Origin: Halogeometricum borinquense DSM 11551
GTDB taxonomy: Archaea > Halobacteriota > Halobacteria > Halobacteriales > Haloferacaceae
Assembly (NCBI RefSeq): GCF_000172995.2
Contig: NC_014729.1
Location: 1,290,001-1,322,000 of the forward strand
Length of the DNA: 32,000 nucleotides
Reading direction: 5' to 3'
The translations under genes were made by a program, and so were the position numbers. Position 1 is the first letter of the stretch; each line of letters starts with the position of its first letter. Below the pieces are notes generated by a model. That model searched no databases and was not told where the DNA came from. It worked only from the letters and a program-made list of their open reading frames with translations. Shown one piece after another: positions 15,120 through 28,889 of this stretch.

Positions 15120-16118
15120 ATGACGGAAACTCTGTTTTTAACGAGTGACGACGTGTCCGGATTGGCAACCCCGGCGGAGTTCGTTGACGCGGTTCGAGAC
15201 GGGTACCGGCAGCGCGGTGAGGGCGCGCCGGCCGAACCGCGGACGAAGCTCCCGAACGAGAACCCACCGGGCTTTTTCACGACGTACGCCGCCGTTCTGC
15301 CCGACACGGGTGCCATGGGCGGTTACATGTACAGTGCCGGGTTCGGCGGGCAGGACGCGTGGTTCATGACGCCCCTGTTCGACGCCGAGTCTGGCGAACC
15401 GATGGCGCTCATCGACGGCGCGAGTATGAATCCGTTCAAGACCGGCGCGGTCGGGGCGGTCGGCGTCGATGCGCTGGCACGCGACGATGCCGAGACGCTC
15501 GCTATCGTCGGCAGTGGCGCACAGGCGCGCGGACAACTCCGCGCCACCGCGGCGGTCCGTGACCTCGAAACCGTCTGGGTGTACTCCCCGACGAAAGAGA
15601 GCCGCGAGTCGTTCGCTGGTGAGATGGACCGCCGACTCGACGCCAGCGTCGCCGCCGTCGCCTCCTCCGCCGCTGCAATCGAGGGCGCGGACATCGTCAT
15701 CACGGCGACGAACGCCTCCGAACCCGTCTTCGACGGCGACCGTCTCGAACCGGGCACACACGTCACTGCGATGGGACAGTACGCGACCGACAAACGCGAA
15801 CTCGACGCGACGACCATCGAACGCGCGAAGTACGTGCCGGACCTCAGAGACCGCGTGACGCAGGACGCCGGGTCGTTCCTCCACGCGCTTGCGGAGGGCG
15901 TCGTGGATGAAGACCACGTCTACGCCGAACTCGGCGAGGTGATCGCGGGCAAAGTCGAAGGCCGCGAGGACGACGAGGAGATAACCGTCTTCGACAGCGG
16001 TGGAACCGGCATCGAAACCGTTGCCGGAGCGTATCTGCTCTACGAGAAGGCACAATCCGAAGGACTCGGGACGACTATCGACTTTGCTCCCGCGAGCGAG
16101 GCGTTGACCGGAGCGTGA
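15120..16118 (+). CDS. Ornithine cyclodeaminase / mu-crystallin family protein (archaeal alanine dehydrogenase-like)
   Basis: 332 aa with a Rossmann motif LAIVGSGAQARGQL and the family-typical ITATNASEPVF and HVTAMG segments. The TGA stop (16116..16118) lies inside the terminal nucleotides of element copy A. Confidence 0.9.
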   Translation: MTETLFLTSDDVSGLATPAEFVDAVRDGYRQRGEGAPAEPRTKLPNENPPGFFTTYAAVLPDTGAMGGYMYSAGFGGQDAWFMTPLFDAESGEPMALIDGASMNPFKTGAVGAVGVDALARDDAETLAIVGSGAQARGQLRATAAVRDLETVWVYSPTKESRESFAGEMDRRLDASVAAVASSAAAIEGADIVITATNASEPVFDGDRLEPGTHVTAMGQYATDKRELDATTIERAKYVPDLRDRVTQDAGSFLHALAEGVVDEDHVYAELGEVIAGKVEGREDDEEITVFDSGGTGIETVAGAYLLYEKAQSEGLGTTIDFAPASEALTGA

Positions 16119-16446
16119 CATCCTCCCGCGCCTAACGTCGCGGGCCTCCCACCCGGTGTTGGGCGGGCAGGTCAATCCTGAAGGTTGAGAGTGTAAGGTT
16201 TGCTGGACAGTCAGCCAGTGGCTCTGCCACGAAGCCGTTACTCGTACCCCGTAGGAGAGCTTCGAGTTATCTGATTGTTTAACGACTGTCGGCGTGGTCG
16301 GCTTACGTGTTTGATTTCGGCTCTCGCCGTGGCAAACACCGACTCAACTGCCAGTTCCCACGCACAACTCTGTGTGCAATGATTTGTGACTTAAATTGTC
16401 GGATTCATCTGGTGGCTAAAGCCACCAGTATCCTCCTTGAATCTCT
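16115..16446 (-). mobile_element. Copy A of the structured non-autonomous IS200/IS605-like element (332 nt)
   Basis: It fills the otherwise unexplained convergent spacer between the cyclodeaminase and pelota genes. Read on the minus strand it is TTAT|AGAGATTCAAGGAGGATAC-[CTGGTGGC ttta GCCACCAG]-GATG ... CCAACACCGGGTGGGAGG-[CCCGCG acgttagg CGCGGG]-AGGATGTCAC|. This is the same end architecture and shared blocks as copy B, with internal deletions. Confidence 0.55.
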
Positions 16447-16462
16447 ATAATCGCCCGGCGGT

Positions 16463-27126: not shown

Positions 27127-27926
27127 GGCGGCATCACCGCCGCATCGGCCGTTCGAGCGAAGATTCTCATTAGCTTTCAGTCGCGTCGTTTCGAGGTTAA
27201 GGGTGTCGCTCACTAGACGCGGCCGACAAGCTGCGATTCGAGTCACCGAAATGCCACCTCGGCAAGGTTTCTCGCGGACCGAACACCGACTTACAGCGTG
27301 AGGCACGGTTATCCGTCCATGCCACATAATAGCATGATAACGGGAGAGACGATGACCGACACGATAGCTATCGAAGAACTGCTACGGTACGCCGCCGAGC
27401 GACGACTGCTTCGGGAGGAACTCGACGACGACAGACTCGATACCGACACGATGATCGACGTGGTCCGGCACGGACCTGTCTTGGAGACACTGTACGGTCA
27501 GTCGTTGGATCGGCGAGATGTGGAGGACTCCCTCGGCGTCTCGCGGGCGACGAGTCACCGACTAACCCGGTGGCTGGTCGAGGAGGGACTTGCCGAGCGT
27601 CGGGATGGAACGTTCTCGCTCACCGGCAAGGGAGAAGTGTACGCCGACGAACTCCTCAGACTGGATCGAAACCTCCGTGCCGCAGAGCGGTTGGCTCCAC
27701 TGCTCGACTGCATCTGTGAGACGCACCGCGAGTTCGTGGTGGAACCGTTTGCTGATGCAACGATCACCGAGGCGACGCCGAACGACCCGTATCGACCGGT
27801 CTCGCGCTTTCTCGAACTGCTTGCGGAGAGCGACACGTTCCGCGGGTTCAACACGACGCACGTCGTTCCGCCGGGAACACCCGGAGCCGAAGACCAACTG
27901 TTCGACACGGACGACGCCGAATTTAT

Positions 27927-28442
27927 AGGTTGAACAGGCGCAATACCACGCCGTGAACGGCGTGGATACGCGCCGTCACTTGTGGTGACGGCCACCGTTG
28001 AAATGCTTTTCCGAGTTCCCTACCGTGATGTTTAATTGACAGGTGAGCGTAGTAGCCGGTAGGAATCGGTCGGAACGGAGCGGATTCCGAACTGTCCTTC
28101 GGAGGCGGCCTGTCCGCCCATGTAACGAGGCAGTATCCGAAAGGGCAGTCGGTGAACGCACATTCCAGAAGAGTGTGTCGACGTGCCGACTGCTGAAAGC
28201 GAGCACCACGATACCCCCGACTCCACTGACACCTGCTGGCGTCCCTGTGGCAAAAACAACACCGGGACGCCGTACATGATCAAGGATAGGGGTAACGGCC
28301 ACTTGGCATGGCCAGCAGTCCACCAGTCCAACACCGTGGGACTACCCGTACCCGAAAGGGCTGGTAGTCCGCTGATTGGACTGCGAACCTGAAACTCCCA
28401 CCGCTCGGGATTCCTCCGCGTTCACGCGGAGGAGGATGTCAA
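27927..28442 (+). mobile_element. Copy B of the structured non-autonomous IS200/IS605-like element (516 nt; boundaries +/-1 nt)
   Basis: The left flank is TTAT and the element starts AGGTTGAACAGG. Two perfect left-end hairpins follow: CCACGCCG tgaa CGGCGTGG (27946..27965) and GCCGTCAC ttgtg GTGACGGC (27972..27992). The right-end hairpin is CCTCCGCG ttca CGCGGAGG (28413..28432), followed by AGGATGTCAA. It has no credible ORF, no terminal inverted repeats and no target duplication. It interrupts a gene in frame-neutral fashion. Confidence 0.65.
28316..28442 (+). ncRNA. Putative omega-RNA (reRNA)-like structured module at the right end of copy B (hypothetical)
   Basis: It contains nested perfect helices. 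The outer helix is CAGTCCAA (28324..28331) with TTGGACTG (28376..28383). Inside it, GGACTACC (28339..28346) pairs with GGTAGTCC (28363..28370) and encloses CCC-GAAA-GGG (28351..28360). The terminal hairpin is 28413..28432. Its position and orientation match where TnpB guide-RNA scaffolds lie in IS200/IS605 elements. No expression data are available. Confidence 0.3.
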
Positions 28443-28707
28443 CACTGTTCCGTCGGTTGCCGACCACTTCATTACCGGCGAGAAAATGGCGGCCTCCTTC
28501 GAACGCGGCCACTTGCAACTCCGAACTCGGGAGGCGCTGCCGTACGGGTTAGCGATATTCGACGAACGGGTAGGCGTCGGCGGCTACGACGACGAGACGG
28601 GCACGTTGCGCGTGTTCGTCGATACCGATACCGACGGCGCACGGCGGTGGGCCGAAGGCGTATACGAAATGTATCGGCAGGCCTCGGAACCAGTCAGCGT
28701 AGCGGGC

Positions 28708-28782
28708 GAGTCGAACGATGCGCCAAATGGGTCAAACGACGCACCAGATGAGTCGAACGGTGCGCCAGATGAATCGAACGAC
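28708..28782. repeat. 21-nt tandem repeat, about 3.6 units (GAGTCGAACGATGCGCCAAAT-like)
   Basis: Read directly. The units start at 28708, 28729, 28750 and 28771 (the last is partial). They encode ESNDAPN/GSNDAPD/ESNGAPD/ESND in the acidic tail of the regulator fragment. Confidence 0.85.
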
Positions 28783-28889
28783 ACGGGAACGGCAACCAGC
28801 GCACAGTCAGATGGTGCAACAGCCCCTGATACCTCCGCCGACAGCAGTGGCTGACGAGTCGAGGAACGGGACGGGAGAGAGCGTCGAGT

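Follow-up and report, generated by a model that had tools for sequence, protein, structure and literature searches.

The stretch of DNA analysed here (the window) comprises 32,000 nucleotides of the Halogeometricum borinquense DSM 11551 sequence NC_014729.1, from position 1,290,001 to 1,322,000. Towards its right-hand end, a gene for a helix-turn-helix (HTH) regulator is broken by a 516-bp block at 27927..28442 (+), which lies in sense orientation relative to that gene. The open reading frame (ORF) 27298..27933 terminates two codons inside the block, and the same reading frame reopens at 28441. Very probably the block, called copy A below, is a palindrome-associated transposable element (PATE): a transposase-less element of the IS200/IS605 type, here of the HqIRS56 family, which carries an RNA resembling the omega RNA of TnpB and is mobilised and used in trans. 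The features of the locus are as follows.

27298..28854, +, split host gene, an HTH regulator (PF25213 + PF08350), with halves 27298..27926 and 28443..28854
27923..27926, +, TTAT target tetranucleotide; part of the flank, outside the element; presumed TnpA cleavage and target site, and presumed transposon-associated motif (TAM) of TnpB
27927..28442, +, PATE copy A, HqIRS56-type, 516 bp, with sharp homology boundaries and ends as in HqIRS56 Table S9
27927..27965, +, left end: linker of 19 nt whose last four bases are AATA (27942-27945), followed by the hairpin CCACGCCG-TGAA-CGGCGTGG (27946-27965)
27972..27992, +, second left-end hairpin GCCGTCAC/GTGACGGC, perfect in copy A alone and not kept by other members
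28031..28036, +, TATA-like box TTTAAT (family consensus TTTAAG), presumed archaeal promoter
28061..28212, +, 5' RNA domain of six helices, PATE-specific, from covariation and covariance model R1; no Rfam match
28228..28442, +, 3' RNA domain including the right end, homologous to the scaffold of TnpB omega RNA (sot0042/HgcC) but diverged from it
28409..28442, +, right end: GATT, the hairpin CCTCCGCG-TTCA-CGCGGAGG (28413-28432) and a 10-nt tail AGGATGTCAA ending in TCAA
28443..28460, +, flank sequence, putative source of the guide segment CACTGTTCCGTCGGTTGC if transcription reads through, by analogy with VNG_R6334

Boundaries, ends and relatives of the element

Excision in silico of exactly 27927..28442 gives a continuous regulator of 328 aa (PF25213 + PF08350). 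The excised junction reads ...DDAEFITVPSVADH... in DNA and ...DDAEFI^TVPSVADH... in protein (^ marks the junction), as compared with ...GDAEFVTVP... in the orthologues. The regulator orthologues P0001-P0003 are uninterrupted, at 73-78% identity, and an annotated 199-aa protein of Halogeometricum borinquense DSM 11551 (P0004) is identical to the N-terminal fragment. Since the DNA of the orthologous empty site (GAGTTCGTC^ACCGTC) can be compared with that of the window (GAATTTAT^CACTGTT), the insertion can be placed 3' of TTAT, without target duplication. An empty site was also sought in other H. borinquense assemblies and none was found there, both elements of the window being present in both strains. 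The split regulator has a C-terminal tail (window 28690-28850) of acidic, low-complexity repeat (..ESNDAPNGSNDAPDESNGAPDESND..), which its orthologues lack.

In 12 plasmid and more than 40 genome copies, homology begins directly after TTAT (27923-27926) and ends with ...GGATGTCAA (28442). The flanks of different copies are unrelated, and there are neither terminal inverted repeats nor target-site duplications in the more than 40 copies aligned or at the orthologous empty site. A first-pass annotation, made from the letters of the window, had drawn the element with exactly these coordinates, had noticed the TTAT flank and the lack of terminal repeats and duplications, and had likened the ends to those of IS608; all of this is borne out.

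In IS608 of Helicobacter pylori, cleavage follows a TTAC that stands 19 nt before the foot of the left hairpin; the right hairpin is followed, 10 nt beyond its foot, by TCAA; and the tetranucleotide just 5' of each foot (AAAG at the left) base-pairs with the site of cleavage (PMC3201880). The ends of copy A have this same geometry, with 19 nt between TTAT and the left hairpin, AATA at its foot and a 10-nt tail ending in TCAA, and neither element has terminal inverted repeats or target-site duplications. AATA (27942-27945) is therefore presumed to be the left guide tetranucleotide, GL, and the GATT before the right hairpin its counterpart, GR. The two elements differ in target and guide (TTAC/AAAG in IS608, TTAT/AATA here) and in gene content, IS608 having both tnpA and tnpB, and they have no sequence similarity. 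The left ends of HqIRS54 and of the PATE on pNRC200 join TTAC to ..GAGAAAG, while elements at TTAT have ..GAGAATA; the change of target from C to T accompanies a change of guide from G to A, which matches the IS608 rule. Both principal hairpins, CCACGCCG/CGGCGTGG at the left and its right-hand partner, are conserved across the family and covary, and the last 64 nt are common to elements with tnpB. Of the two perfect left-end hairpins originally pointed out, the one at 27946-27965 is real and conserved, and the one at 27972-27992 is peculiar to copy A; at the right end the hairpin and the TCAA terminus stand, with a tail of 10 nt rather than 11. The sequence evidence supports placing copy A in the IS200/IS605 family as a non-autonomous derivative.

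PATEs were defined by Dyall-Smith et al. (2011; PMC3119063), who tied them to IS605-type elements and described strain-specific insertions of HqIRS56. In their Table S9, HqIRS56 of Haloquadratum measures 532-574 bp, with the left end TTATA TGCTGAGCAGGCGCAATACCACG..CGTGGATACGCGCCGTCA... and the right end ...CCACCGCTCGGGATTCCTCCGCGTGAACCCGGAGGAGGATGTCAA. Set side by side with that table, the 5' ~50 nt and the 3' ~45 nt of copy A are near-identical to HqIRS56. HqIRS56 of Haloquadratum walsbyi resembles copy A in an almost identical left end, in the right end ..CCACCGCTCGGGATTCCTCCGCG....GGAGGAGGATGTCAA, in the target and in the lack of inverted repeats and target duplication; it differs in length (532-574 bp against 516 bp), in host genus and in small repeat expansions found in the Haloquadratum copies. 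Judged by its sequence, copy A is a member of this known family at a new site in a new host. The family is thus not an undescribed one, as had been supposed at first: its ends match HqIRS56 (PMC3119063), and PATE-derived RNAs with an 8-bp/UUCA hairpin were reported in 2015 (PMC4615843). The 2011 description of HqIRS56 deals with ends and mobility only and leaves the RNA content aside.

Neither tnpA nor tnpB is found in the window, in agreement with the first-pass annotation, and the apparently non-autonomous element would be mobilised in trans. It is too short for a transposase gene, and the two antisense ORFs within it have no Pfam match. Its frame 2 keeps a relic of the TnpB C-terminus (..GNGHLAWPAV.. 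against ..SNGWLAQPGV..). Longer relatives do exist: tnpB-only elements of the IS1341 type, among them ISHwa21 and elements of 1457-1518 bp in Haloterrigena, Haloarcula, Haladaptatus and metagenome-assembled genomes (MAGs). They share with copy A the TTAT flank, the left end (first ~58 nt), the last ~64 nt and an omega-RNA hairpin whose loop is UUCA. The single ORF of these relatives encodes a true TnpB (OrfB_IS605 + Cas12f1-like TNB), where the PATE has none; they also differ in reaching the gathering score of sot0042 and in lacking the 5' RNA domain. None of them has tnpA, so that of the full-length relatives envisaged at first, with tnpA and/or tnpB between the same ends, those with tnpB were found and those with tnpA were not.

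Searches by tblastn with TnpA sequences as queries found no tnpA in the window or in 130 loci; one weak match was rejected because it falls in a helicase ORF. It is worth adding that almost all tnpA genes of Haloquadratum are reported to be disrupted (PMC3119063). Two haloarchaeal IS200/IS605 elements that bear tnpA were inspected, one on a plasmid of Natronorubrum aibiense (L268) and one on pHsi117 of Haloarcula sinaiiensis (L269, ISHsi2). Both plasmids also carry an HqIRS56-type PATE, and the ends and targets of their tnpA elements are different (TCTAA^ACGAAAAGCAGCGCGAG... and ..TAG^CTGATAGCAGGCGCTAAG...).

A promoter-like box and a structured RNA

The interior of the element, on which the first-pass annotation was silent, is largely an RNA locus: about 75% of the element consists of a presumed promoter and a structured RNA of ~380 nt related to the omega RNA of TnpB. 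The element folds much more stably than shuffled sequences do, with z = -5.8 (+ strand) and -6.3 (- strand). RNAalifold was applied to an alignment of 52 sequences, which fall into three subfamilies with 66-88% identity, and returned 67 pairs, 36 of them with compensatory changes. Because cells with G.U pairs (261) greatly outnumber cells with A.C (25), the sense strand is the strand that folds. Two of the RNAalifold pairs (89:455 and 90:454) would link the 5' domain to the 3' tail over a long distance; this pairing was rejected, as covariation does not support it.

The RNA is predicted to have two domains. At Rfam gathering thresholds nothing is found in the window; in permissive mode only, RF02656 (sot0042) matches 28254-28433 over its full model (46.9 bits, E = 6e-11) and RF00062 (HgcC) matches 28364-28450 (23.6 bits). 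The 3' ~215 nt align to the whole of the sot0042 model, including the terminal hairpin of 8 bp with a UUCA loop. The PATE RNA differs from sot0042 and HgcC by one more internal hairpin, whose GGCAAAAACAAC loop is conserved, and by a 5' extension of ~160 nt. On this alignment the 3' domain is judged to be homologous to sot0042, yet it lies outside RF02656 by the Rfam cut-off. Against sot0042, the tnpB relatives that share the right end reach 86-102 bits at the 3' ends of their genes, and the PATE on pNRC200 of Halobacterium salinarum reaches 76 bits. Gomes-Filho et al. (2015; PMC4615843) described the 8-bp stem with UUCA as an 'RE-like tetraloop' of sotRNAs, HgcC and PATE-derived RNAs, and the right hairpin of copy A is this tetraloop. 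PATEs have since been reported often to encode omega RNAs that need TnpB in trans (Meers et al., 2023; PMC10055086).

The 5' domain has no counterpart of this kind. Its six proposed helices have 92.4% of cells paired in the alignment, and 18 of the 33 pairs show compensatory double changes; in a control in which helix partners were slid by 1-3 columns, 25-52% were paired. The covariance model R1, built from this domain, scores 167 bits in the window and finds 27 more PATE copies in 86 sources (600 kb), where it matches no tnpB element and not copy B; it matches the Haloquadratum loci L039, L040, L078 and L117. As the loci searched with R1 had been chosen by their right ends, the metagenome scan was re-seeded with an internal 23-mer of the 5' domain. 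All 94 of its 94 occurrences with sufficient contig room sit in PATEs and none beside TnpB, among the matches listed (as are all the metagenome figures below). A blastx comparison of the element with TnpB proteins finds no TnpB relic in the 5' domain, and no Rfam family matches the domain in Rfam 15, used permissively.

Several copies carry additional sequence in this domain. Three loci of Haloquadratum walsbyi MAGs (L039, L078, L117) have tandem expansions of GCAGTT/GCAGAT beside helix P5/P6, and in L081 helix P4 is expanded by a CCCCG repeat. There are also tiny mobile inserts, of 55 nt in L001 (~2687-2742), L041, L056, L080, L085, L115 and L137 and of ~110 nt in L042. These are bounded by terminal inverted repeats of 8 bp (TCGTTCGA...TCGAACGA/CCA), contain a pair of hairpins around CGTGATGACGA, and sit at GAGG^C in either orientation with no duplication. 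They resemble the SMR-A elements that Dyall-Smith et al. (2011) reported as targeting PATEs, and the right-end hairpin of ISNph12, as printed, carries the same kind of insert.

In 41 of the 52 copies the first helix is preceded, at a distance of 30-31 nt, by a T-rich box. The box has a column identity of 0.75 and the RNA one of 0.71-0.74, with a drop to 0.52 in the spacer between them. Haloarchaeal promoters use a TATA box of the TTWT type (PMC4983044), and the box at 28031..28036 may well serve as one. A guide to the transcript is VNG_R6334 of H. salinarum, the RNA of the pNRC200 PATE, whose ends were placed at 268030-268304 by published RNA-seq (PMC4615843, Table 2). Its mapped 5' end lies 30 nt after the equivalent box, and its 3' end lies 18 nt beyond the GATGTCAA of its element. 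This extent is the layout of an omega RNA, a scaffold followed by a guide derived from the flank. By analogy, the RNA of copy A would start near A28061 and run to ~28460, with CACUGUUCCGUCGGUUGC as its guide.

VNG_R6334 and VNG_R0052 of H. salinarum are both transcribed PATEs with the RE-like tetraloop. VNG_R6334 shares with copy A the order of left end, T-rich box, RNA and right end, and its 5' part matches R1 weakly (34 bits). It differs in that its element is HqIRS54-like, has the target TTAC and is shorter (~370 bp), with a reduced 5' domain. Strong transcription has also been reported for a PATE of 489 bp in Halorubrum lacusprofundi (PMC10544981).

Distribution, left-end types and copy B

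BLASTN finds the element in 64 haloarchaeal plasmid records, at 146 places, of which 12 are full length (70-87% identity; Natronorubrum, Natrinema, Halomicrobium, Halobacterium, Halorientalis, Haloarcula, Natrialba and others). A pattern scan of genomes, with one genome per species, gave at least 120 matches. Among the matches listed, TTAT precedes about 36 of the 42 genome copies with upstream context, copy lengths cluster at 501-521 bp, and the titled records are all Halobacteria or archaeal/halobacterial MAGs with a single exception (L088). This exception is a contig of a Victivallales bacterium MAG in which the right-end pattern matched once, without BLAST similarity to the element, and it is probably a chance or partial match. 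TTAT is likewise found upstream of 42 metagenome copies and of all the full-length tnpB relatives; the metagenome copies are 501-520, 567-574 or 625-628 bp long. Copies across the Halobacteria number in the hundreds, which bears out the first-pass expectation of further copies. A phage collection searched with the sf1 and sf2 queries gave no match, and a scan of viral contigs gave one incomplete match only, so that carriage by viruses could not be shown.

The family has three unrelated left-end types, with the hairpins CCACGSCG, CCTGCGGC and CACCCGC, that share one module of promoter, RNA and right end (for example L006-L009, L041 and L049 as compared with the window). AATA precedes the hairpin in all three. 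The joining of one module to unrelated left ends suggests that left ends have been exchanged between PATE families.

The second element of the window, copy B, is listed here.

16115..16446, -, PATE copy B, 332 bp, with HqIRS54-like ends, from alignment and fold

Copy B has a TTAT flank (16447-16450, -), an 18-nt linker ending in GATA, a left-end hairpin CTGGTGGC/GCCACCAG (16409-16428), a TTTAAG box, an RNA of ~250 nt, a right-end hairpin CCCGCG/CGCGGG (16125-16144) and the tail AGGATGTCAC. At its left end it looks like the second left-end type, CCTGCGGC. It matches sot0042 at 16146-16272(-) with 24.3 bits. Its RNA part has 71-84% identity to sequences in 15 plasmid records, a different set from that of copy A, and its left end is unmatched. 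From these comparisons copy B appears to belong to a related but different PATE family and not to be a copy of A. The first-pass annotation had taken it for a second copy, correctly describing the shared architecture, and had read the differences between the A and B hairpins as covariation. Because copy B belongs to a different family, that comparison is not one of within-family covariation; selection for structure is nevertheless seen within the family of copy A, where the covariation is real.

Copy B lies between convergent genes for an ornithine cyclodeaminase and a Pelota/eRF1-like protein, and the stop codon of the former (ORF 15120..16118) falls in the terminal TCA of the element, at 16116-16118. 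Convergent genes take a TGA stop from the terminal TCA in the same way in L002 (3020-3023), L004 (3019-3022) and L005 (3019-3022). More generally, antisense frames of at least 80 codons end in the TGA of the element at 28 of 127 right ends, as against 16 and 12 for the other two frames. Insertion at TAA stops would be nearly neutral, because TTAT is the reverse complement of ATAA, and xxA TAA becomes xxT (or xxG) TGA.

In GCA_004150395.1, an assembly of another H. borinquense strain, the right end of copy B is joined to the 3' part of an A-type element (L140, 2247-2354), and a run of N lies beside copy A (L264, ~1345-1356); the draft contigs L265-L267 begin inside copy A, at window 28280-28390. 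The chimeric junction, the gap and the contig breaks are probably repeat-induced assembly artefacts, a hint that H. borinquense harbours the A-type element in several copies.

Proposed mechanism and alternatives

We propose that the TATA-like box at 28031 drives an RNA that would run from ~28061 through the right end and 16-20 nt into the flank. A Y1 TnpA made elsewhere would excise and insert the top strand as single-stranded DNA (ssDNA) by peel-and-paste, recognising the subterminal hairpins, with AATA pairing with TTAT. A TnpB made elsewhere would bind the PATE RNA and, using the flank-derived guide and TTAT as TAM, cut emptied or naive copies of the site (TTAT^CACTGTTCC...). A filled copy of the chromosome could then, by recombination, restore or spread the element, a process that would be efficient in polyploid haloarchaea. 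For the 5' domain we can only guess at stabilisation of the RNA or at help in competing for TnpB.

Several observations weigh against this proposal. No tnpA has been found with these ends: every left-end BLAST match examined adjoins a tnpB-only element, and the two haloarchaeal tnpA elements that tblastn found carry other ends. The promoter of copy A is predicted from consensus and spacing alone, and structure in top-strand ssDNA is not fully separable from RNA structure by sequence. Copy A, at 46.9 bits, lies below the RF02656 gathering score of 88. Its scaffold is unlike that of the tnpB elements that share its right end, with an extra hairpin, and DNA similarity to those elements is limited to the last 64 nt; this divergence leaves the fit with any TnpB putative. 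Finally, the proposal assigns no role to the 5' domain.

A bolder version is that the 5' domain is a new functional RNA module, for exploiting TnpB in trans or for an activity independent of TnpB, and that the family, spread across the Halobacteria, is not a decayed insertion sequence (IS), being instead a 'guide-RNA-only' parasite that propagates itself, has a promoter of its own and can swap its left ends. This we offer tentatively, as one possibility and not the most probable one.

It is rather unlikely that the element, a PATE by origin, is maintained because its RNA, and especially the 5' domain, serves the host as a small RNA acting independently of TnpB, for example in regulation or protein binding. 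Overexpression of a PATE-derived RNA improved the growth of H. salinarum (PMC4615843), the 5' domain is missing from every tnpB element searched, and the PATE scaffold has diverged from the omega RNAs linked to tnpB, all of which would suit such a function. However, the copies lie at unrelated sites, disrupting genes or abutting stop codons as selfish insertions do, they retain the omega-RNA core, the right end and the layout for read-through into the flank, and there is no known target or partner.

A still less probable view is that the interior is an inert deletion relic without RNA function, conserved through the recent spread of a master copy and by its ssDNA hairpins. The PATEs of Haloquadratum are documented as arising through core deletion of IS605-type elements (PMC3119063), and the remnant of the TnpB C-terminus in frame 2 would fit such an origin. 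Against this, subfamilies only 66-75% identical keep their helices by compensatory changes over the whole 380 nt, the drop in conservation coincides exactly with the promoter spacer, one RNA module occurs with different left ends, and TnpB genes resemble the 5' domain at neither the DNA nor the protein level.

Could the RNA instead splice itself out of the regulator mRNA, leaving the host gene functional? The IStrons of Clostridia combine a group I intron with IS605/IS607 ends and an omega RNA, their IS605-type ends likewise enclosing a large structured RNA together with an omega RNA at the right end; and copy A lies in sense within a gene, with a length that is a multiple of three. IStrons differ from the PATEs, which have archaeal hosts, no detectable group I core and no sign of splicing. 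No group I or group II intron model of Rfam 15 matches, even at E <= 10. Group I introns end in G, whereas the element has A as its last base. The majority of copies lie between genes or run antisense at gene ends, and the element has its own promoter-like box. A candidate P1 helix of the group I type, in which an internal GUAA would pair with the TTAT that closes the exon, was rejected, as the G is not conserved. We regard self-splicing as very improbable.

A classical DDE-type miniature inverted-repeat transposable element (MITE) or a housekeeping structured RNA, for which nothing speaks beyond small size and strong folding, can be dismissed with near certainty: the flank analysis refutes the former, with neither terminal inverted repeats nor target duplication in any copy inspected, and for the latter the element is multi-copy at unrelated loci and matches no housekeeping RNA family, homology to which the first-pass annotation had named as telling against a mobile element.

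The preferred reading thus remains that of an HqIRS56-family PATE with an omega-like RNA, acted on in trans. As far as we have searched, three aspects go beyond published descriptions: the PATE-specific 5' RNA domain, the modules of left end, promoter, RNA and right end in which left ends are exchangeable, and the breadth of the distribution. For annotation, this reading explains both the split regulator gene of H. borinquense and the second, intergenic repeat of the window. It also yields a signature, namely TTAT, an AATA-hairpin, a TATA-like box, the RNA and ..GGATGTCAA, which fits copies by the hundred that lack annotation in the genomes of haloarchaea and in hypersaline metagenomes. The family represents a natural omega-like RNA uncoupled from its nuclease, with its own promoter-like box and an extra conserved domain, and offers a tractable system in which to study the sharing of guide RNA in trans, the role of the 5' extension and the transposase that moves the tnpA-less elements of haloarchaea.

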